Origin: a virus
Lineage: Duplodnaviria; Caudoviricetes
Strand: one strand, 5' to 3'
Virus record (IMG/VR): IMGVR_UViG_3300002484_001904
Span: 1-27,374 of that record
Length of the DNA: 27,374 nucleotides
Shown here: positions 5,295-27,181 of the stretch, piece after piece
Numbering within the stretch: position 1 is the stretch's first letter
Layout: every line of letters starts with the position of its first letter
Translations under genes and position numbers: made by a program
The notes under the pieces: generated by a model
The model's input: the letters and a program-made list of their open reading frames with translations, nothing else
Told to the model about the DNA's origin: nothing
Database searches by the model: none

Positions 5295-8200
5295 ATGAAA
5301 AGTTTGACCCAGAAGGAAGCGGTTATGATTATAAGACTGCAAGAGAAGATGGGCTAGCGCCAGATGAAACTGGGCATTGGCCTAGTAGGTCTCCCAAGTC
5401 AGGGCAACTTCTAAAAGGGCGAAAGCATTCGACATATCCTAAAACAGTTGCAGGGGAAGAAGCAGCGGGGTATAGAATTAGAAAAGGTGAGGATGGTAGG
5501 TACTATTCTAAAAAAGATAGTGATGCAAGTCTGCGTGAAAGAGCAGATGCGGTTGCGGCCACGTTAACTCCACAAGAACAAGGGGTTATTGATTACCACA
5601 GGGGGAACCTAAAGTTAGGGGCTACCCATAATGGTGCGCCTATGACTGCTCTTACAGTTGGCCCTAAAGTTCACACTGGCCCTCATGCAGGTAAATTCGC
5701 ATCGGTCCCTAGTTTCGTGCCGGGGGTGAATGACAGTAAACCTATGTCCGAAGATCAGGCATTGGATTATTGGCAAAAAGAAATTGATGCCGGTAAGTGG
5801 CCTATTTATAACTCAGGCGAAGCACTGAATGAGCGAAGCGCGGACATTCATACCATTATGGAGGTAGATACTGAAGGCTATGTCCCGCCTTCTGCAGCGA
5901 ACGTCACTCCCTCGTTTGAAATATCTCAAGATGCTCTAGACCAGTCCAGTGATGGTGAGCTTATTCAGATGTTTAACCAACAGCAGAAGTTCAATAGGGC
6001 AGCTATAGAAGAAGCTAACATAGAAGAGTATATAGAGGCCCAGATGAAGAGGTGGTCGGCGCAGCGTAGCGGACGGCCAGGGGCATGGCGTGTGTATCGT
6101 AACGCAGACGGTAGCTACTACATTTCCACTGCAGAGCAGAAAGCGCGGCGAGAATTTCGTAGTCAGCGCGAGGATTGGGTGAATTCGTACAGAGAAGAAG
6201 CCCATGAGATTGGAACTTCCTTAAGTGAGGCTGAGATAGCTGAGGCGCAGTTTGGAGGTAGGTTTGACCGTGATAGAGACACTGGTCTAATTACTGAGTT
6301 CAACGACCCAAGACTACGTTTCGACGCAATGCGTAGCCACGAGAAGTTCGTAGAGATTGCAGATAAAATTACAGCTAAGTATCCAGGGTCTGAGATAGTG
6401 AGGCTGGAAGACCCAGTGAATGGAACTGCTATTGCTCTTAGACTCCCTGGAGAGGAGACGTTTATGCTGTTTGATTCAGATAGAGTAGCTACGTTTAGTG
6501 ACTGGGCTGAGGCTGGTGGTTACATAGCTAACCTAGAAGTAGGTACTGCTGTAGCTGCTACCTTAGCTACTAAGAACCTGAGTTTCCTAACCAGAGTACC
6601 CACTATGTCACTAGCTGGGGGAGCTGGCGCGGCTTTAGATGAGAGTTTGGAGCATTTTCGTGGGTATCAATCTGACCCTATAGATGATATATTTGCCAGC
6701 AACGTAGTGCCAGCTATGGTAGCGGGTGCCTTAGGTGAGGTAGTCACAGCACCTGCTAATGTAGCCGCTAAGAAGCTTCGAAAACCTTGGCGGAAGTCAT
6801 TAACCGATGAGGAGAAGCGAGGTAAAGCTCAGTTCTCTCCAACTCCTGGAGGGATAGAGTTTAGTATAGACAACAGTGACGTTCTTGGGCCTTTCCCAGG
6901 AGCGTTTGAACCTACGTCTGGTGCTATGGAGCGTATGGCTATATCCATAGACCGAGTAGCTAGGCTAAAGCAAGCTAAGCAGGCAGCTGATGCGATAAAT
7001 GACCTAGAGAGTTTTAAGACCCACATTGACGCTAATGCAAGTGGTCTTACTGATTCAGACGTAAACGCACTGGCTGAGGCAGCTATTGCAGAGTTTAAGA
7101 GTGCTGTTGTAGGGGCCAAGGAACTATCTAGAGAAGCGGGGGGAAGGGGTCTCGGTAGGGGATACGTGGCTTTCAAGAAGATATATTCTACGCACATAAC
7201 TAGGAAGTACGCTAGAGCGGATGCTGAGGCAGTGGGGGCGAAGTTTAGCTCAATTGGGGCTAAGGATAAAGCTGACGAGGTTCTAGAGGGAACAGTAGCC
7301 GCAGGTACAAAAACTGTTACGACGCCAGCTAGCGTGGTAGTTATGCCCGGTGCTAGAGGTAGGGTCACTCTTAGGACTCCTGCTACCTCAACAACTGTAC
7401 CAGCTGATATACAGCTGCAAGACCTAACTCCTGAGTTTAGGAAGCAACTAGATAAGCTTAGGGCTATGCCAGATATAGTTATGGATGGTAAGGATCCTGC
7501 AGCAGAGCAGATGAGGCAGCTTAGGACTAACTTCTTTGAGCTTAAGACTCCTAAACCAGGAGAGAGGTATACGCCAGAGAATAGGTTAGCTGAGCAGATA
7601 TGGGAAGAGCTTACTAAGTCTATGGAAAACCCCACAGCTGGTGGATTGAACTATCGTGTCAGGCTGAAAGCAGCTAATCTAGCTAACTCTAGGTACGAGC
7701 GCATAATAGAAGTAGGAGAGATAGCTAGGATAGGCAAAGAGTATAACCCAGGTAGACTAATGGAGATGGTTAGGGTAGGCAATGCGTTCCCACTAAGAAC
7801 CTTAAAGAGGGTCATGGCAGATGAGCACTGGCAGGAATTCAATCAGGCGTGGAAAACACAACTACTGAGGTCTGGTAAAAACATTAGAAAGACTCTAGAG
7901 GAATTTGATACTGACCCTGAAGCATTAGAAGTTATGTTAACTCCCTCAGAAGTAATAAACTTCAAGGAGATTGGAGATAACATAGCTAGAATTGAAGAGG
8001 TAGTGAACAAAGTTAAGACCTCTGTTCTTGGCAGAAGTAACAACCCCAAAGAGATTCTAAATACTGGTAACATCGATACTATAGAAGAGTTGATAGCTGC
8101 TGGTGGAGGTAAGAATTCTAAGACTGGGAAATCCTTGAGGTGGTCTGTCATAGATTCTATCATAGATTCTGCTCATAAACTTTACGAAGGCAAAACTAAC

Positions 8201-10082: not shown

Positions 10083-10307
10083 TTAGAACCAAGGACTGTT
10101 ATCTTTAGAAGTTGCTTTACTATAACCCCAAGGTGGGTCTTTAAGTTTAAGTTCTAAATCTTGAATCTTAGCAGTAGCATACCCATCTAGGTACCCAGCT
10201 TTAAATGCAGCTTTCATATCAATGTGGCCTACGTCTTCCTTCAGGTAGGACATACCTGTGTACTGCCACAACCAGTTCTTAAACTTCTTAATGTAAACCT
10301 TTTTCAT
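10083..10307 (-). CDS. Hypothetical protein
   Basis: 74-aa ORF packed in the operon; 'AFKAGY' motif common in small phage proteins. Confidence 0.55.
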   Translation of the reverse strand: MKKVYIKKFKNWLWQYTGMSYLKEDVGHIDMKAAFKAGYLDGYATAKIQDLELKLKDPPWGYSKATSKDNSPWF

Positions 10308-10331
10308 CGATGTTACCAGTATTTAGCCATA

Positions 10332-14782: not shown

Positions 14783-15394
14783 TCAGGCAGCCTGTTCCTC
14801 TTTCGCTGCCGCCATCTGTGCCTCTATATATGCTGCTATGTCAGCAGGACTCACAGCAGAATCCTCTTTAAGAGGATGGGTATGCACTACACCGTCTAAC
14901 AAAGCCTCTGCTTCTACTACATCTGAGTCACCAGTGAGATATGCTTCAAAAACTTTAGCTACGTCTATAACGTCGCTGGGTTCAACGGCGGGGGATGCAG
15001 CTACTTTGACTTCATGCTCTACAGCCGGTGTTAAGTAATCTACAGCTGCCTTCAAAGCTACTGCTCTACAGATAGACCTCTGAGTGTGTATAGGAGGGTT
15101 CCCTGGTTTATCGTGCGCTGCACGGGCCGCTCCTTGGGCACCTCCACCAGTAGATGCATCGGCGGGAGGTACCCTAGGTCCAGCACCTGCCTCAAGAAGC
15201 TCTACCTTCCCTTTAATATTGTGGTATGTCTTACCCCCAGACTCTTTGTCTACGTAGGCAAACTTAACCACATCACCCTCGGATACATCTGAGTAGGCGA
15301 CAGATGGTGTCCAAGCTGAGAAAAACCTCTCATCGTCTAGGGTGATAAACTTATCACGTTTACTTACTATAATTCCTGTAGCAGTCATAGTCAT
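14783..15394 (-). CDS. Putative single-stranded DNA-binding (OB-fold) protein
   Basis: N-terminal beta-rich 'EGDVVKFAY...YHNI', a flexible linker, a helical 'QRSI.R..AL..AV' domain and an acidic tail; lies between polymerase and exonuclease. Confidence 0.5.
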   Translation of the reverse strand: MTMTATGIIVSKRDKFITLDDERFFSAWTPSVAYSDVSEGDVVKFAYVDKESGGKTYHNIKGKVELLEAGAGPRVPPADASTGGGAQGAARAAHDKPGNPPIHTQRSICRAVALKAAVDYLTPAVEHEVKVAASPAVEPSDVIDVAKVFEAYLTGDSDVVEAEALLDGVVHTHPLKEDSAVSPADIAAYIEAQMAAAKEEQAA

Positions 15395-16238
15395 CTTGCA
15401 GTACTCCTTTCTTATGAAGAATAGATATAGTATCTTCTCTGGTTAACTGAGACATCTCTTGCCAGTTAGACCCATATGTAATATCGTAGTTTATATGAGT
15501 AGTTAGCTGGTAGTTAAACAACTCTAACACTGTCAGAGGTAATCTAGCCACCGCCAGCTCTATGGCCATAAGAGAAGTATAGAACATCTGTGCCCTAATG
15601 TCAAGTAAAACAGAATCATGTACTGTAGTTACTAGGTGGTCAATAATTGGAAATCCTTTTACGTTTACTAAGTTGTTTACTACCAGAGGAACGAGGTCCC
15701 CAGTAGCAAACCCTTGTATTGGATAGTTTTTAGCCTCAGTAGCTGAGAAGTATTTACCACCAGTGTACCCACCTTCCTTAGCTATTAATTTATACTCTCT
15801 TTTGGTAGGTGTGATATCCCTAAAAGTAATAGGTTCTCCTGCTGTGTCAGCTGCTTTACACACAACTTGCAAACCTAAGTGAAATGAGTTAACGAGTGGA
15901 TATCTTTCGTAAAATGCTTTCATAAAAGCTACACATCTCTCTTTAGATATCTTAAGTTGTTTAGCCATAGTAGTTGGTGCAGCACCATACTGCGCCATGA
16001 AGGTCATGCGCTTAGCCTGAAACCTCTCTTCATCTGTTATTTTATCTTCATCCTTAGACAACCACTCTGCTGCATTGCGTCTATGTATATCAACACCTGC
16101 GTTTAGTTCATCTCGTAAAGTTATATCACCAGATATCTCAGCTAACGCACAAATCTCTAGCTGTGAGAGGTCAAACTCCACTAGCATACCTTCGTTTAAT
16201 CCATACCTACTTACTATGTACTTCCTGAAGTCACTCAT
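15360..16238 (-). CDS. polA: Family A DNA polymerase, C-terminal (palm/fingers) part
   Basis: Motif A FDLSQLE, motif B RFQAKRMTFMAQYG, NYPIQGFATGD, motif C TVHDSV. Confidence 0.92.
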   Translation of the reverse strand: MSDFRKYIVSRYGLNEGMLVEFDLSQLEICALAEISGDITLRDELNAGVDIHRRNAAEWLSKDEDKITDEERFQAKRMTFMAQYGAAPTTMAKQLKISKERCVAFMKAFYERYPLVNSFHLGLQVVCKAADTAGEPITFRDITPTKREYKLIAKEGGYTGGKYFSATEAKNYPIQGFATGDLVPLVVNNLVNVKGFPIIDHLVTTVHDSVLLDIRAQMFYTSLMAIELAVARLPLTVLELFNYQLTTHINYDITYGSNWQEMSQLTREDTISILHKKGVLQDDYDCYRNYSK

Positions 16239-16250
16239 CTTCCAATTCCT

Positions 16251-17471
16251 CTAGTGTTTAGGTAAATTCATTAGGTTAGGATACGCACATGATATCCTAC
16301 CAGTTGGTGTAACAGTGTGGCGATACTCTGGATGAAACAAATCATCTGAAGATGCCTTATCTACATACCCAGTATAATATGTCTTTAAGTCCTTGTTTAT
16401 CTTACGATATTCTAGTAGGTCAGATATAAACTGTATGTCATGAGCTTCCACTAACATAGTAGATATCTCTTCTAACGCCTCTTCATCTACCTTGGTGATG
16501 CGCTCTAAAGTACACCCCATTTTAGTTGGCATACAATGTATGTCAACTTCAGATACTTCTTTCTTTAATCTTTCCTTTCCTTCTCTACTACCAGACTTAT
16601 AAAATGTTCCTGTGGGAACATAACGAGTTTGTTCCGCCTTCCCGCCTAATATACAGAGCTTAACCTGTTGATTAGAATTTGGAGTTATCCTTTTATCATA
16701 CTTTTCTGGAAGTGTTAGACACATGAAGTCACATAAGTCACCCGCCAATTCATTTGACTTTTTTTCAAGACTAGCTTTCTTAGTAACTGCTCCCGCTCTA
16801 TCTAAATTAAGTCCGTTCATACTCATACGGAAAGTTATGTATCTCCACTGCATATGCTGTAACACTAGATTAAAAAAAGACTTATCACGTCTATCATTAA
16901 GTATCTCTACCTGCTTATTAAACAACTCTTTAGTTATTAAAACGTCCTGGTGTAGATATCTTTCAAGTATGTTGGAGTGTAAAGTAGACGGACATGTACC
17001 AGCTTTAATAGCTTCAGATACTTCACTATCCTTAGAGAGGTGTCCTAAACCTACGTCAACTAAAGACTTCTCTAGCGAAGGGAACTTATGGGTCTGTCCA
17101 GACATCATGTAAGCTGCTACAGATGTATCCCAGTATATACAGTTAGTATTAAATATAGTAGGTCTGCTCGCTCTCGCGAGGCCAAGAGGGTCGTTAAGTA
17201 ATTTTAAGTCAAAGGGTAGGTTATGTCCTACTACTATATCCGGGTTAGTAGATGCTAGCGTATCACGTAACTTATATACATCAGTACTGCAAAAGCACTT
17301 TGTTTTTCTTCCCGGAAATAATGTATACATGAGTGTTTCTCCTACTAAATATCTAGGTGGTTCACAGAATACACTCTTACCTCTCTCAATTAAAGTAGTC
17401 TCTACATCTAGTACACATATCGTACCTCCATCCAAAGCTTTGTGAAAATCATCTAGGTTATACTTAGACAT
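16251..17471 (-). CDS. polA: Family A DNA polymerase, N-terminal part (3'-5' exonuclease plus thumb)
   Basis: ExoI LDVET, ExoII GHNLPFD, WDT, ExoIII YLHQDV; ends TPTGRISCAYPNLMNLP. Confidence 0.9.
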   Translation of the reverse strand: MSKYNLDDFHKALDGGTICVLDVETTLIERGKSVFCEPPRYLVGETLMYTLFPGRKTKCFCSTDVYKLRDTLASTNPDIVVGHNLPFDLKLLNDPLGLARASRPTIFNTNCIYWDTSVAAYMMSGQTHKFPSLEKSLVDVGLGHLSKDSEVSEAIKAGTCPSTLHSNILERYLHQDVLITKELFNKQVEILNDRRDKSFFNLVLQHMQWRYITFRMSMNGLNLDRAGAVTKKASLEKKSNELAGDLCDFMCLTLPEKYDKRITPNSNQQVKLCILGGKAEQTRYVPTGTFYKSGSREGKERLKKEVSEVDIHCMPTKMGCTLERITKVDEEALEEISTMLVEAHDIQFISDLLEYRKINKDLKTYYTGYVDKASSDDLFHPEYRHTVTPTGRISCAYPNLMNLPKH

Positions 17472-19879: not shown

Positions 19880-21049
19880 TTAATCTCCAAACACAGTGTT
19901 AACAAATCCGAGTACCATCTCCCGCTCGGACGGGTCATCGAGTCTATTTATGAATGCCATCATAAGAGACTTCTTGAAGTTACGGAGTGCGAGCGCATGC
20001 TGCACCCAAGACTTAAGTACGCGGAAACTTAGGATAATACTCAAAGTTTCCTGCGAGTACGCTTCTCTACTCAGTCGAGCCACCTCTACCATAGATTCAA
20101 GCAGAAGTGTTTCTGCCTCCGGGTAGAGTTTCTCCAAAGCAGCAACCTCAGTTGCTGCAGACATGAAGTCTACGTGAATGAAGGTCTGCACTCTATCTAA
20201 AGTAGACGTGTTTTGTGGTTGGGTACCAACAAACTTCCCTGACATATCACCCATACCTTTGGTGTTATCGGCAAACATGATAACTAAGTTATCTCCAGGG
20301 TGGACAAACTTACCTTCAACTGTTTTGCTGTTGTTGTTGGCAAGCATCATGCACCCGTCGTCCTCCAAAGGACGCTGCATACACATCATAATCTCAGGGG
20401 GAGCCGACCAAGGCTCATCCAAAAGCATTACCATGTTGTTCATTTGGTACGCTCTAGGAATAAGACCTTCCTCGAAGAAATCCCCCTTAGAGACATCAAT
20501 GTGGGTAACTCCCAGCATTTCATCTACGTCAGTTGCGCCATTAAAACCAAACCTAATGAAAGGTCTAGAAGTAATAGCAGCAAACTGCTCTGCACCTGTG
20601 GATTTACCAGTACTAGGTAACCCAGTAAGCATAACCTTAGGTTGGTAGATGTTCTCAACCGCACAAGCTAACCTAAACATTAGCTCAGGGTTGTGATGGT
20701 AGGTTGACATTTGGATAGGAATAAGCTTCTTCTCTTCGTCCGTGTACTCGTAATCCTTAAAAGAAGAAACCAGAATATCAAACTCTTCTGGCCAATCCTC
20801 CTTAGTACGCCCACACAGCTCACTGAGCATAACTTTTGTTCCTCCAGGAACAATTTCCTCGTCAACTACGACGTCTTCGACGTCCTTGAACCACCTGCTG
20901 CTGCCTTTCAAACCAACAGCGCTAAGCTTGTCGGCCATGCTACTAGCAGCCTTAGTGGTTCTCTGCTCCGCGACCATCGCCGCGACTTCTTTCGCAACTC
21001 TAGAAGTTGGTGTTGGTGTAACCACTGTTGTAGAAGTTGATATAACCAT
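19880..21049 (-). CDS. CobS/CbbQ/MoxR-family AAA+ ATPase
   Basis: Walker A GLPSTGKS, Walker B LLDE, ADNT.G.GD, QNTSTLDR, and a C-terminal S.R.L..W motif. Confidence 0.85.
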   Translation of the reverse strand: MVISTSTTVVTPTPTSRVAKEVAAMVAEQRTTKAASSMADKLSAVGLKGSSRWFKDVEDVVVDEEIVPGGTKVMLSELCGRTKEDWPEEFDILVSSFKDYEYTDEEKKLIPIQMSTYHHNPELMFRLACAVENIYQPKVMLTGLPSTGKSTGAEQFAAITSRPFIRFGFNGATDVDEMLGVTHIDVSKGDFFEEGLIPRAYQMNNMVMLLDEPWSAPPEIMMCMQRPLEDDGCMMLANNNSKTVEGKFVHPGDNLVIMFADNTKGMGDMSGKFVGTQPQNTSTLDRVQTFIHVDFMSAATEVAALEKLYPEAETLLLESMVEVARLSREAYSQETLSIILSFRVLKSWVQHALALRNFKKSLMMAFINRLDDPSEREMVLGFVNTVFGD

Positions 21050-21161: not shown

Positions 21162-23027
21162 CTACTTACGTAGAATACAGTCTTTAAGCGTAGAAATCAA
21201 GGCATCGGGTAGCTCCTGAAGCTTATTAACTACGTAGTTGTTTTTGTAAAACCTAATTACATTTGAATCTAAAATCCCTATCCCTAATATATCTACGTTA
21301 GGGTCATCTTCAACCTTCTTAACTACGTAGGTAGTGAAACTTGCACTATCACCCCTACCAGAAGCAGGACTGCCGTCCGACAGTACACATATAATTTTAC
21401 GTGGCTGCTTCTGTTGTAAGATGCGATGGTAAGCTACTAAAATGCTATCTCCATCAGCGTTTTCAACCATTAGTTTAGAAGTTTCTAGAAGATTGCGCCT
21501 AAGATTATTAGGCGTTATTGGAGTGTTAAACTCTTTAGCTATCGTATAACGATTATCCAAAGTATTCACCTCCGTAAACGCAGCAATCTCTACGTTAATC
21601 TTCAACGTTTTGCATAAGGATTCTAGCCCTATTGCAGCTGCAATGGCAGTGTTTATCTCCTCCCCGTACATAGAACCAGACGCATCTACTAGTACTAAGA
21701 GGGCACAGTCTAGCGCTTTGGATACGTCCTTATTTTTAAACACCTTATCCCTTAGGTTAGCGTTAGCACCAAGTACTCTGTGGAGTTTGGTTCCGTGTAT
21801 CTTCCCTTTCTTCTTATTGAAACCTACTTTTTTACGAGTCTCAACTTGAAGATACCTCTTAGCTCTAGCAGTCATAGACGATATATTCAAAGTGTTTAAT
21901 TTACTTTGAACATTCTCGTCAGTAGCTCCAGGTCCACCCCTAATAGAACTACTCTTAATCGCTTTAAAAGTGCGATGTAAGTTTACTACTGTGGTGGTAT
22001 CATCTGTATGTGGTGAATATACTTCAGAAAACCTAGTTGGTCTCCACCTAGAATAATCAATAGATATACCAGTTCCGGTAGTATCCATAGAATCTCGGTG
22101 GTCACTGTACGCTATATCCTCGTAGGGGATAGTATACGGCGGAACTTCTCCGTCTACACTCTCTCCTTCCTCGGTTACAGTACTTTCAGTTTCTTCAGAA
22201 CCTCCTTTTTCTTCGCCGGTATCCTCAGAAGGTTCCCCATCATCACAGGGGTCGCCGTCTTTGGACTCCTCACCTTCAGAAGACTCACCTTTTTCTCCTT
22301 CCTCATCTTCTCCCTCATCATCTGGGGGCTGGGGTGGAGGTGGGTCATCTTTAGGTTTCTTAGATTCATTGTAGTTAAATACCTTCTCAAGTATTTCATC
22401 TACAAAATCTAACTCAGCAACCGCAGTCTCTAACTCACAATACCTCTTGAAGTAATCGCTCGTTAGTATGCGGTACTGTTCCGCTTCGATATCGTTATGC
22501 CAGCGTGAGAATAACTTATCGACATTTTCTAGGGTTGGATTCCAGACGCTGCGAGCTAAAGTGTCAAAGGGTAGCAATACTTTCATTATGCTACCAAATG
22601 CATCTAATCCAGGATTAGACCACCCTTTAGTAGCTACCTCTCTAAGCATAGCTACCGAGGATACCTTATGCCAGTCATACATACCTAAGTATTTATAGCA
22701 TCTAAGCTTATCATTACGTCCGTCGTCTACTAAGTTAAATACAAACCCTCGCACACTATTTGTGTTTAGATTTTTAATAAACTTAGGATGCCAAACGTCT
22801 TTACATACGCCTAGGTGGTGTCCACACTCGTGGCCATTAACGTCAAACCACTGGATAATCTCCGCCTTCTCCCACTTAGGGTCAGGAGTCCTAACATAGA
22901 TAGTGCCCTCGTTTGTTCTAGGGCACTGGTTAGGGTCCTGCGGGCTGAGATACGCAGTGGCTAAACCCGCTTCCGCTGCTATAGCACGGTTCATACCTTG
23001 CACTGCATGACAGTCGTTAAACAACAT
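21162..23027 (-). CDS. CobT-like protein: N-terminal HExxH domain, acidic linker, C-terminal vWA domain
   Basis: HECGH, DDGR.D, an Asp/Glu-rich linker, MIDAS DASGS, N.DG, LSDG.P and GIGI. Confidence 0.85.
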   Translation of the reverse strand: MLFNDCHAVQGMNRAIAAEAGLATAYLSPQDPNQCPRTNEGTIYVRTPDPKWEKAEIIQWFDVNGHECGHHLGVCKDVWHPKFIKNLNTNSVRGFVFNLVDDGRNDKLRCYKYLGMYDWHKVSSVAMLREVATKGWSNPGLDAFGSIMKVLLPFDTLARSVWNPTLENVDKLFSRWHNDIEAEQYRILTSDYFKRYCELETAVAELDFVDEILEKVFNYNESKKPKDDPPPPQPPDDEGEDEEGEKGESSEGEESKDGDPCDDGEPSEDTGEEKGGSEETESTVTEEGESVDGEVPPYTIPYEDIAYSDHRDSMDTTGTGISIDYSRWRPTRFSEVYSPHTDDTTTVVNLHRTFKAIKSSSIRGGPGATDENVQSKLNTLNISSMTARAKRYLQVETRKKVGFNKKKGKIHGTKLHRVLGANANLRDKVFKNKDVSKALDCALLVLVDASGSMYGEEINTAIAAAIGLESLCKTLKINVEIAAFTEVNTLDNRYTIAKEFNTPITPNNLRRNLLETSKLMVENADGDSILVAYHRILQQKQPRKIICVLSDGSPASGRGDSASFTTYVVKKVEDDPNVDILGIGILDSNVIRFYKNNYVVNKLQELPDALISTLKDCILRK

Positions 23028-23394: not shown

Positions 23395-23499
23395 GGCAAT
23401 GAGACTATCCAGAGACTAACAACAGTGACGTGAGGGACTAAAACTCGGTACCATCTGTTTGTATCGTAGTTTGATGTTAGCAGGTCGTCTCATTACCTT
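23395..23499 (-). ncRNA. Putative structured RNA element, copy 1
   Basis: Outer stem GGUAAUGAGAC/GUCUCAUUGCC and apical UGGUACCGA are shared with copy 2; G-U pairs point to the - strand. Confidence 0.6.
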
Positions 23500-23611
23500 A
23501 TTTACTTAAACGGGTTTTATATGCATTTAAGCGCATACGGGTCAGTAGTACAGTACCTCGTAGTTATCGAGGTCTGCGCCTACCTTATTGTTTCCTCACC
23601 AAAATAGGCAA

Positions 23612-23713
23612 GGCAATGAGACTATCCAAACATGTAACCAGGGCTTCCATTGACTGTACGTCGGTACCACTGACAGTGTAGAAGATAGTTAGGTTCAGTC
23701 GTCTCATTACCTT
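23612..23713 (-). ncRNA. Putative structured RNA element, copy 2
   Basis: Same three invariant blocks; inner helices UAACUA/UGGUUA, CUUCUA/UGGAAG and ACUGU/ACAGU. Confidence 0.6.
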
Positions 23714-23728
23714 TACTATTGTTGGTGA

Positions 23729-23950
23729 TTACTTGTTGAAAAACAATCGAATGATATCGTCAGCAAGCTCCTGATTATTAGGCTGGCGCTCGCTTGTCCG
23801 AAACATTTTCGCTCGCTTATTCCTCATCCTCCGGTCTTCTGCGATGTAGCGCATAGCATGTGCTGTGCGGCGCTTCTTACCGGATTTCTTACACCCCTTA
23901 CTACCCTTACTTTTGGTAGGCTTGGGGATATTGATAGTGTTATTAGCCAT
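23729..23950 (-). CDS. Small highly basic early protein
   Basis: GAGGAG RBS; 73 aa, Lys/Arg-rich; ends 15 nt before RNA element copy 2. Confidence 0.7.
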   Translation of the reverse strand: MANNTINIPKPTKSKGSKGCKKSGKKRRTAHAMRYIAEDRRMRNKRAKMFRTSERQPNNQELADDIIRLFFNK

Positions 23951-24639: not shown

Positions 24640-25317
24640 TTACGTTGACGGTGGATAGATAGCCTGGATGTCGGTCACGGCCGCCTCTGCAGCCTCGGCG
24701 GGATTCTCCATTTCACCTAGGCACTTCAGCAGCCGCGTCAGCGCCTTTGCCAGCGCGGCAGCGTTTTTGACTTCAACCTCCGCTGCCGTGGGCGTAGGCT
24801 TAGCAGCCTCCCGCGCTTCGGCGATGGCTTCCCCGCACGCATCCTTTGTGAGCAGGTCTCCATTTTCATCGTAATGTGAGACCCCACACTCGAACATCCC
24901 GCGGATTGTACTCTTCGCGGAGCGGTAAGCCAGCGTGGTGTGTTCTGATACAAAAACCTTACCAGCCTTCGACCGTTTGATTGCTGAGTCCGGGATGTGC
25001 AGTTCAACCCACGCAACCTCGGCGTCATTCATGGCCTTTGCGCAGTCACTCCAGTTGTCGAAGTTGCTGATTGCGATGCGCCGCTGCCGGTTGAAGGTGT
25101 CCTCTGAGAATCCCCGGAGGCCGACGTAGATACCCACGATTTCCGTGAATTCCTGCGTCGGCGTCAGCACCTCTGCGGTCTCCTGAGCGTCATCAACGAC
25201 AACGTCAGCTGCGTCCGCGAACGGATTCGACTGCTCAACCTCAGCGTCATCAACGACAACGCCTTCGACCGACAAGCTATCTACCACATTGTAATATTTA
25301 GTTAGCTGATTTTTCAT
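24640..25317 (-). CDS. Hypothetical early protein (first ORF of the - strand block)
   Basis: AAAGGA RBS; 225 aa, acidic N-terminus, 'AYRSAKS.I...GV..DENG' motif; visibly more GC-rich than its neighbours. Confidence 0.75.
   Translation of the reverse strand: MKNQLTKYYNVVDSLSVEGVVVDDAEVEQSNPFADAADVVVDDAQETAEVLTPTQEFTEIVGIYVGLRGFSEDTFNRQRRIAISNFDNWSDCAKAMNDAEVAWVELHIPDSAIKRSKAGKVFVSEHTTLAYRSAKSTIRGMFECGVSHYDENGDLLTKDACGEAIAEAREAAKPTPTAAEVEVKNAAALAKALTRLLKCLGEMENPAEAAEAAVTDIQAIYPPST
25186..25261. repeat. 19-bp direct repeat inside the CDS (encodes VVVDDA twice)
   Basis: AGCGTCATCAACGACAACG at 25186-25204 and 25243-25261. Confidence 0.8.
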
Positions 25318-25927: not shown

Positions 25928-25943
25928 TGCAATTCCCATGCCA
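25928..25943 (-). promoter_or_regulatory. Sigma54 (-24/-12) promoter motif
   Basis: TGGCATGGGAATTGCA fits TGGCAY-N5-TTGCW. Confidence 0.7.
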
Positions 25944-25982
25944 AGTTTAAGTCATTGATTTTACATGACGCTCAAGGCGGAG

Positions 25983-26032
25983 GTGACGCAGAGCGTCACA
26001 TTGTGACGTCACATTGTGACGTAGAGCGTCAC
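25983..26032. repeat. Nested GTGACG/CGTCAC palindrome array
   Basis: GTGACGCAGAGCGTCAC-ATT-GTGACGTCAC-ATT-GTGACGTAGAGCGTCAC. Confidence 0.8.
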
Positions 26033-26428
26033 TTTAGACTTTGCTAATATACCCAGGGCCGCGTATGTCAAATTATAGTTATTAATCAATGACTTAGCCC
26101 TACTGATAATGTTATCAGTAACTACGTATATTAGTATTGTCTAATATAATCGTAGAGCCTCTTTTTAGGCTCTGTGAGAGGCGCTATTCTCCACCCGCTA
26201 CCCTGATGCTCCGAGGGTGAGAACTCACTAATAAGATATAGTCTCATTTAGAATTATATCGTTTGAAATCAATAGGTTACGGGTAATTCTACGTTTTAGC
26301 TATTTCTTTATTAATCAATGACTTAAAATGATAGACTTATCATTAGTGAAGCTATTGATAATATTATCATTATACACCAGACAGACTTAATATTAGTAAC
26401 TGCTAATATACATTTAATTCAATTATTA

Positions 26429-26444
26429 TGCAATTAACGTGCCA
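26429..26444 (-). promoter_or_regulatory. Sigma54 (-24/-12) promoter motif
   Basis: TGGCACGTTAATTGCA is a near-perfect consensus match. Confidence 0.75.
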
Positions 26445-26455
26445 ACTAATTAGAT

Positions 26456-26475
26456 GTTAGTGAGTACTCACTAAC
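26456..26475. promoter_or_regulatory. 20-bp perfect palindrome containing the SlmA-binding consensus
   Basis: GTTAGTGAGTACTCACTAAC; the core GTGAGTACTCAC (26460-26471) is the E. coli SBS consensus. Confidence 0.65.
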
Positions 26476-26611
26476 CCACGTCATCCAGGCTTTATCCAGG
26501 CTTTAGTACTGGGTAGTGTGGTACCAAACCAGTCACATAGGTACCAATTTTGTTCCTGTAGGAACTTAATAACCAATCAATTAGTTGGATTGCCTGCGAC
26601 CGACTAATTAA

Positions 26612-26709
26612 AGGTACAATGAAGGTACATCAAAGGTACAATTAAGGTACAACGACAAGGTGCAGGTACAATCTATCCCCAGGTTATCCACAGGTACAGT
26701 GCAGGTACA
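26612..26709 (+). repeat. AGGTACA iteron-like repeats with an embedded DnaA box
   Basis: AGGTACA at 26612, 26623, 26634, 26645, 26664, 26692 and 26703; TTATCCACA at 26684-26692. Confidence 0.8.
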
Positions 26710-26956
26710 ACGCGGCCATGTCAATATATTGACAGCCTGGTGAAATATTGACGGGTACTCCCCCCGCTGGCCGGCTGGGTGATATATTTACCCTCAATTA
26801 CACAAGACGGGGAATATGGGGAACTTTATTAATTACTATAATAATCAATGACTTAACTTTAGAGGTACATAGTAGCCGACGGAGCGAAGCTCCTTATGAC
26901 TTGACTTCTTAATATTAGAGGTAATCTTCGATTACCAACAGTTGGAATGTCAAACC

Positions 26957-27104: not shown

Positions 27105-27181
27105 AGCGGGGTGGAGCATTCCGGCAGCTCAGCTGGCTCATAACCAGCAGGTCGCAGGTTCGAATCCTGCTCCCGCTACCA
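27105..27181 (+). tRNA. tRNA-Met (CAT), initiator-like
   Basis: 77-nt cloverleaf: acceptor AGCGGGG/TCCCGCT, D stem GAGC/GCTC, anticodon arm GCTGG-CTCATAA-CCAGC, T arm GCAGG-TTCGAAT-CCTGC, encoded ACCA. Confidence 0.93.

Follow-up and report, generated by a model that had tools for sequence, protein, structure and literature searches.

Tandem structured elements among the early genes of a marine ICP2-like podophage: candidate long-armed dual-guide RNAs

What could be the function of two ~105-nt units that lie in tandem on the minus strand of a phage genome, between small early genes and cobT, with an identical scaffold and diverged interiors? The window analysed here, the whole 27,374-nt stretch of IMG/VR record IMGVR_UViG_3300002484_001904, is a fragment of a marine ICP2-like podophage, 62% complete. 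The phage turns up in 20 runs that belong to 15 studies, 8 of the rows possibly representing its source; no RNA data set is listed among these, which has no bearing on expression. Its genes include primase, helicase, a split polA, endonuclease I, RNR and a CobT/CobS pair, and among named phages ICP2 comes closest in CobT (32-35%) and CRP-3 in RNR (57%). Judged by gene content, the CobT and CobS genes indicate that the elements lie within the early part of an ICP2-like genome. The polymerase genes (15360-17471) are adjacent ORFs of 406 and 292 aa, and no element could be made out between them. The word GATC is nearly absent from the whole window (3 against 68 expected), an avoidance that would fit a Dam-bearing gammaproteobacterial host.

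The first-pass annotation had described three identical blocks of 16, 9 and 17 nt separated by largely different segments, and both parts of this description hold: all scaffold bases are the same in the two copies (42/42), and the arms between them have diverged with indels (Table 1). An 11-bp basal stem forms as claimed, with a pair probability of at least 0.98 in both copies. The GAC/UGGAUA internal loop said to cap it is present but smaller than proposed, since the GG of UGGAUA is paired (with C-U in copy A and C-C in copy B), so that a 2x3 GA/AUA loop remains. As had also been noted, the 73-aa ORF ends 15 nt 5' of the elements, and no ORF of 50 aa or more is listed in the element region itself. 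A fourth common block, CTATTTT, lies 4 nt beyond the 3' end of each copy and is possibly an end signal. The linker between the copies holds TATGCGCTTAA..GCATATAA (23537-23527 onward), and the same words recur 5' of the 73-aa gene (23991-23981); they may represent a promoter or operator.

Table 1. Coordinates of the elements, their parts and other features in the window; the last two rows refer to related loci.
Feature	Coordinates	Strand	Remark
Copy A	23713-23612	-	102 nt; arms of 28 and 32 nt
Copy A, block 1	23713-23698	-	
Copy A, left arm	23697-23670	-	
Copy A, apex block UGGUACCGA	23669-23661	-	identical in both copies
Copy A, right arm	23660-23629	-	
Copy A, block 3	23628-23612	-	
Copy B	23499-23395	-	105 nt; arms of 30 and 33 nt
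Copy B, block 1	23499-23484	-	
Copy B, left arm	23483-23454	-	
Copy B, apex block UGGUACCGA	23453-23445	-	identical in both copies
Copy B, right arm	23444-23412	-	
Copy B, block 3	23411-23395	-	
CTATTTT after copy A	23601-23607	-	candidate end signal
CTATTTT after copy B	23390-23384	-	candidate end signal
Linker between copies	23500-23600	-	two hairpins
Extended stalk of copy A	23596-23728	-	7 bp + 5 bp past basal stem
73-aa basic ORF	23729-23950	-	no Pfam or PHROG family; candidate RNA partner
225-aa early protein	24640-25317	-	also in relatives without the RNAs
CobT-like vWA gene	21165-23027	-	downstream of elements
CobS-like AAA+ gene	19883-21049		downstream of elements
Palindrome TGTTCCT(N1-4)AGGAAC[AT]	3738, 8696, 9826, 12551, 14706, 16605, 18162, 19804, 20837, 23131, 24450, 25340, 26551		
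Locus tied to end-region words, L016	507-556		
Locus tied to end-region words, L014	260-273		

It had further been proposed that the variable arms still pair with each other and that pairing on the minus strand reflects selection at the RNA level. For copy A the pairing claim holds, and the fold is specific to the minus strand. The minus strand folds with z -4.5, a stability equalled by 0/200 shuffles, compared with z -1.3 and 21/200 for the plus strand. When only the arms were shuffled, 27/1000 sequences were equally stable; the 24 arm-arm pairs were matched by 3/600 shuffles and the arm duplex energy by 36/3000, although random genome segments gave a weaker contrast (204/3000 as good). The resulting structure is a rod in which helices of 6, 6, 6 and 5 bp are separated by three 1x3 loops (C/CAU, U/CCC and C/CAA), and none of 600 shuffles of the copy A arms produced two or more such loops. 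In published accounts of the C-loop motif, its mark is a 1x3 loop with a long strand that begins with C (10.1101/2021.12.02.470923; PMC8570644), and we call the loops of copy A C-loop-like because their long strand begins in this way. For copy B the pairing claim does not hold. Arm-arm pairing did not rise above shuffles in this copy: 689/1000 arm shuffles were equally stable, and two other measures were matched by 155/600 and 820/3000. Arm-swapped chimeras fold at -26.7 and -27.0 kcal/mol, against -26.9 kcal/mol for copy B itself, the middle of its right arm is largely unpaired, and imposing the three-loop rod costs 8.7 kcal/mol above the minimum.

These folds bear on the idea that the elements are structured decoy or ruler RNAs, in which a C-loop-like hinged rod titrates a host RNA-binding protein or a defence sensor. 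The rod would hold the invariant apex and base about 23 bp apart, the arm sequence would be free provided that it pairs, and copy B would be a diverging or decaying duplicate. A rod specific to the minus strand with G-U pairs, and its three C-loop-like loops, are what such an RNA would be expected to show; the right arm of copy B also holds U-CCC-U, U-CAC-U and U-CUC-U, arm lengths agree within 2 nt between copies, and a place among early accessory genes would suit a host-interaction function. Against this, the arms of copy B pair at chance level and resist the three-loop rod, compensatory changes would be acceptable in a ruler stem whereas the basal stem does not vary at all, and no mimicked molecule was found. 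We regard a decoy as the main rival to the guide model, possible if on balance unlikely.

The stem of copy A extends past its base to about 23728-23596 (z -5.9, 0/200 shuffles) and begins directly behind the 73-aa gene's stop codon, and this extension may be a processing stalk. It brings in the alternative that the elements are not independent RNAs, being instead cis-acting processing or stability hairpins of an early polycistronic mRNA, of the RNase III type. There is precedent in the early precursor of T7, which is described as carrying five RNase III signals (PMC3867540), likewise long imperfect hairpins among podophage early genes. The stalk of copy A, placed immediately behind a stop codon, reaches about 50 bp, and strong hairpins between genes are numerous in this region of the relatives. 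Unlike the T7 signals, the elements combine an invariant loop and base with a variable middle and have no gene between them. Such hairpins would also leave the invariant apex and the 42 identical bases unexplained, the proximal boxes of RNase III sites being degenerate according to PMC3867540, and the element is absent from the relatives searched. This explanation appears improbable.

The scaffold can instead be read as a set of boxes. The apex block UGGUACCGA consists of a box D (UG), 4 nt and a box C (CGA), and the same boxes recur at the base, such that all four arms have CGA before and UG(G) after them: stem-CGA-29/31 nt-UG GUAC CGA-32/33 nt-UG GAUAG-stem. The first-pass annotation had compared the units loosely with dual-guide RNAs of the TIGR or box C/D type, and the CGA/UG boxes and the 9-nt loop lend this architecture more support than was claimed for it, without making the elements members of TIGR. 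Like the stem-loop tigRNAs, as described in PMC12045711 and bioRxiv 10.64898/2026.09.09.750476, the elements have a terminal stem, two variable segments each flanked by box C (CGA) and box D (UG), a 9-nt loop of the form UG-N4-CNA, a tandem arrangement and a phage genome as carrier. TIGR repeats have UG at the start and CCA at the end, and their boxes covary between edge and loop as a consequence of binding a symmetric dimer (PMC12045711); in the stem-loop units, box C (CNA) precedes and box D (UG/CG) follows each spacer, and the loop is modally 9 nt. Both copies follow the box rule (CNA before, UG/CG after, edge equal to loop) and the rule of a ~9-nt loop from box D to box C (UG-GUAC-CGA). 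They depart from the spacer rule of 8-12 nt, with 29, 32, 31 and 33 nt being about three times too long, and from the rule of a stem of at least 5 bp running directly outward from the boxes, since there is a 5-nt offset on the 3' side; for pairing of box C with box D the stem is 5 nt out of register, and the basal GG folds onto the left arm. Unlike TIGR units, whose stems are variable, the elements have stems that are identical between units, and in one copy (A) the arms pair with each other.

Based on base composition, and post hoc, the chance of a loop that starts with YG and ends with CNA is 0.007, and that of the same boxes recurring at the base is 0.0004. A sequence-free descriptor of the architecture found both copies and one further match (in ICP2) in 365,182 bases, and gave 2 matches across 10 shuffles of the window. 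The earlier remark that no Nop-domain protein is visible was borne out, with PF01798 absent from the window of this 62% complete record, a Pfam-based test that Tas proteins can escape. The IS110 domain PF02371 likewise had no match in the same 62% complete record. A search of the window itself for a tandem DNA target found no 9+9 match with at most 3 mismatches, and shorter matches were scattered.

Two other guide systems invite comparison. Box C/D sRNAs have the box consensus RUGAUGA / CUGA; unlike them, the elements have neither these boxes nor K-turn geometry, by inspection and in the folds. K-turns are given as a requirement of box C/D sRNAs in PMC11213020. Both these sRNAs and IS110 bridge RNAs are likewise portrayed with two guide-like strands in a closed stem (PMC11213020; PMC11208160), and the rRNA target of the former is also the candidate target of the elements (PMC11213020). 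The guides of bridge RNAs, at 4-9 nt (PMC11208160), are set against element arms of ~30 nt. Nop5, fibrillarin and IS110 recombinase had no representative in the window, and the host is bacterial. When rRNA antisense matches near the D boxes were sought, as for a box C/D RNA, one arm stood above shuffles and three did not. By analogy, the elements could work like a tigRNA or a box C/D RNA; we do not assign them to either, and TIGR membership is rejected because the arm length is wrong and a Nop protein was not found in this 62% complete record.

The same apex block UGGUACCGA also holds the word UGGNACC and the palindrome GGUACC, and each suggests a different function. In the T-box literature (PMC11404447; PMC7583486), UGGNACC is the consensus of the T-box antiterminator bulge (PMC11404447), a word that the elements share, and T-box Stem I contains C-loop-like hinges, as does the copy A rod. 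It had been suggested that the elements sense or sponge tRNA; in the form considered here, the apex UGGU would pair with the ACCA end of uncharged tRNAs and sequester or shield them. Two facts behind this suggestion are sound: UGGUACC matches the consensus exactly, with a chance of about 0.0006 over three placements, post hoc, and the phage's own tRNA does end in ACCA. This tRNA (27105-27181, plus strand) has a CAU anticodon, an encoded CCA and an unusual D loop, and is initiator-like by eye. The remaining evidence goes the other way and leaves the T-box resemblance weak overall. The word sits in an apical loop, whereas the T-box bulge is 7 nt long and lies between helices A1 and A2; Stem I, the specifier and the Stem III motif are missing from the single-hairpin folds; and antiterminators without Stem III had no appreciable tRNA binding in the work described in PMC7583486. 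Furthermore, the elements have no interdigitated T-loops or terminator, they do not lie 5' of an amino-acid gene, and Rfam returned no T-box match at E<=10. Across the predicted ensemble, the U and the second G of the word show partial pairing; adding the phage tRNA to the fold brings 0.0 kcal/mol in a model blind to loop-end contacts, and the symmetry between base and apex is left unexplained. Membership of the T-box family is rejected, and T-box-like sensing is distinctly improbable. Because the post hoc chances are similar (0.007 and 0.0004 against 0.0006), at least one of the two resemblances, the T-box word or the TIGR-like boxes, is probably a coincidence.

The palindrome had prompted the suggestion that the elements could dimerize through a kissing loop formed by GGUACC, and it could also mark a DNA-level site or a recent duplication with no function as RNA. 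The loop is self-complementary and yields -11.6 kcal/mol as a free duplex, and the genome does contain several repeated DNA motifs and short duplications. By our own estimate, however, a palindromic hexamer within a 9-nt block is expected in about 6% of cases, and the window contains 13 copies of GGTACC compared with 13.9 expected. Copy A folds on one strand only under RNA parameters and loses its rod under DNA parameters, which speaks against a DNA-level site, and a neutral duplication would not leave three blocks invariant while the arms diverge. This group of explanations also seems improbable.

Motifs of the tRNA D-loop, the Thr anticodon and the thrS operator provided further comparisons for the apex. 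Mimicry of a tRNA D-loop and Thr anticodon found no support: the longer words are absent from the four tRNAs compared, and copy B has no anticodon stem. An attC-like interpretation did not survive inspection.

A dual-guide RNA would require targets. A BLAST search of the region and its units, of the kind proposed for the variable segments, found no outside target among phages, plasmids and E. coli, the best E being only 0.7. Using E. coli rrnH as rRNA target (positions in E. coli numbering), the best rRNA site for the right arm of copy B was 23S 437-476, at -35.8 kcal/mol, in a duplex that spans most of the arm and loops out 8 target bases. This energy was reached by 0/60 mononucleotide shuffles, 0/40 shuffled targets, 7/350 dinucleotide shuffles and 0/48 natural chunks, the chunks being unmatched to the G-rich strand of the rRNA. 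A second scoring gave 7/600 for 23S and 23/600 for all rRNA, and overall the arm lies above shuffles with p about 0.01-0.04. The site was top for this arm in 28/34 23S sequences (near-full sequences out of 48, mutually related and so not 34 tests). In folded copy B, the 437-476 tile was the best of 191 (-10.8 net); folded copy A gained nothing on binding any of the 191 23S tiles.

The other arms gave less. The lowest energy for both left arms was at 23S 2223-2257, which we take to lie just 5' of the P loop, with joint values of 85/3600 and 1/40; the left arms of the copies are homologous, and their common site is therefore not independent. This site was best in 22/34 and 27/34 of the 23S sequences, and with the second scoring the left arm of copy B preferred other sites. 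For the right arm of copy A, a 13-bp helix interrupted by one bulge is predicted near 23S 1127-1141, its top site in 9/34 sequences. Taken singly, the left arms of A and B and the right arm of A did not exceed shuffles (10/60, 12/60 and 51/60; for the last also 28/40), nor did they with the second scoring (145/600, 272/600 and 481/600). The sum of all four arms was reached by 3/40, Fisher's p over all arms was 0.19 for all rRNA, 0.053 for 23S and 0.14 for the antisense control, and 3/60 control segments had p<=0.05. The combined rRNA signal of the four arms is thus borderline, at p 0.05-0.19, in one among several target sets tried. The right arm of copy B also has a 13-nt antisense match within a 1124-aa gene of the window (6870-6882), reached by 1.3% of 300 shuffles, odds similar to those for rRNA. 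Pairing of the right arm of B and the left arm of A was strongest with E. coli- and Pseudomonas-like sequences. We treat rRNA pairing as a lead, not a result, and consider it doubtful that rRNA is the specific target of such guides.

How widely does the element occur? The claim of novelty stands, with no match in Rfam 15 at the gathering threshold, and the view that these are undescribed structured elements, most likely RNA, is supported. The proposed covariance-model search was less rewarding: a model from both copies, with a poor consensus structure, found nothing below E 0.7 in 6 related loci, and in 10 further loci it recovered only L020, from the same phage. Pattern searches of viral contigs gave 0 stretches, another 11 without the architecture, and 88 stretches forming 69 distinct segments, many of them near-copies of one locus, of which the best 25 by end-pairing lacked the architecture. 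Metagenome contigs yielded 4 stretches (2 from this phage, L019 and L020, and 2 representing one chance sequence), and genome contigs 0 and then 25, none with a closing stem. Across these viral, metagenome and genome contigs, no homologue was found outside this phage. The elements of L019 and L020 are identical in sequence, 4 runs with patchy cover contained no variants, and the phage is near clonal. The element looks like an accessory gain, as far as sequence comparison can tell, because the flanking genes are retained in relatives that are about 40% identical in CobS, and these yielded no match to the element. No published description was found in the literature searched, including 6 supplement files of PMC10690425, which held no match; the TIGRFinder tables may bear on spacer-length outliers. 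What appears to be new here, by analogy with known systems, is the box symmetry together with the long arms, in a layout of the known box C/D-TIGR dual-guide kind. We stop short of naming a new category, since its expression, partner and function are so far only proposed.

Among possible protein partners, the 73-aa basic protein had been put forward. It has four matches, namely itself, a 1044-aa repeat protein and two distant homologues (60 and 64 aa), with the common motif RYIAE.RR.RNK in these two. The 225-aa early protein has a motif Y.SAKS.....E.G and 21-25% identity with proteins of the ICP2-like loci L014, L016 and L017; a structural model of this neighbour, the one protein folded in the search for a Tas partner (pLDDT 67, 4 sequences), reached a best Z of 6.5, with no Nop or Tas among the listed families. 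In the relatives, tandem duplicated small early genes were noticed (L016 1398-1860, L014 2228-2461) with a C-terminal motif F...KF..ACG in common.

Several repeats elsewhere in the window deserve mention in their own right. A palindrome, TGTTCCT(N1-4)AGGAAC[AT], occurs about 13 times, in many cases at gene junctions, and 0 times in five related loci; it is possibly an operator or a transcript-processing hairpin. Exact repeats of at least 18 nt number 3 in the window and 0 in 30 shuffles. Three long inverted matches (8057-8077 / 10306-10326, 21 nt exact; 1378-1399 / 6108-6129, 22 nt with 1 mismatch; 6014-6046 / 14813-14845, 33 nt at 85%) each have one arm inside the 1124-aa gene, and through the last, two unrelated proteins carry almost the same peptide (ANIEEYIEAQM / ADIAAYIEAQM). 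The non-coding end region (25940-26860) contains AAGTCATTGATT four times, seven GGTACA repeats (26613-26704) and the 17-nt word GTGACGCTCTACGTCAC, identical and present twice in the distant relative L016. These repeats are probable origin or packaging signals.

Taken together, our tentative preference, held at rather under an even chance, is that the elements are long-armed dual-guide RNAs, whatever their target. The guide reading is preferred because the frame is invariant, the boxes are twofold symmetric, the arms of copy B are free and one duplex is above chance. In its favour, the 42 invariant scaffold bases include even a plain Watson-Crick stem while the arms have diverged, and the arms of copy B carry no sign of selection for mutual pairing; against it stand the closed, well-paired rod of copy A and the sample of two copies from one near-clonal phage. 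According to this guide model, two paralogous small RNAs would be made early in infection. The constant frame of basal stem, CGA/UG boxes and 9-nt apex would be bound by a dimeric RNA-binding protein, which may be encoded by the host or in the remaining third of the phage genome, and the two ~30-nt arms would pair with a target nucleic acid. In copy A, where the arms are closed on each other, the protein would have to open them. Host 23S rRNA is the candidate target, with the right arm of B directed to 437-476 and both left arms to 2223-2257, and RNA bound at these sites could interfere with the assembly or turnover of 50S subunits, or divert them, as the phage takes over. This narrower version, in which snoRNA/TIGR-like guides with ~30-nt arms act on host 23S rRNA at 437-476 and on the strand leading into the P loop with a non-Tas partner, is a good deal harder to credit than the guide model at large.

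Even as a decoy, the locus would present three C-loop-like motifs in tandem, in an RNA fold that is undescribed. The bacterial and viral relatives among guide RNAs (TIGR and IS110 bridge RNAs) use guides of about 9 nt against DNA, and rRNA guides of the box C/D type are described for archaea and eukaryotes. If the guide reading is true, TIGR-type boxes with arms three times longer and possible rRNA complementarity would extend this family towards RNA targets. E. coli K-12 has the candidate 23S sites in conserved form, and a real rRNA target would be categorically new: an RNA guide would direct a partner outside the known Tas proteins to the bacterial ribosome, which would offer a route for phage takeover of ribosomes.
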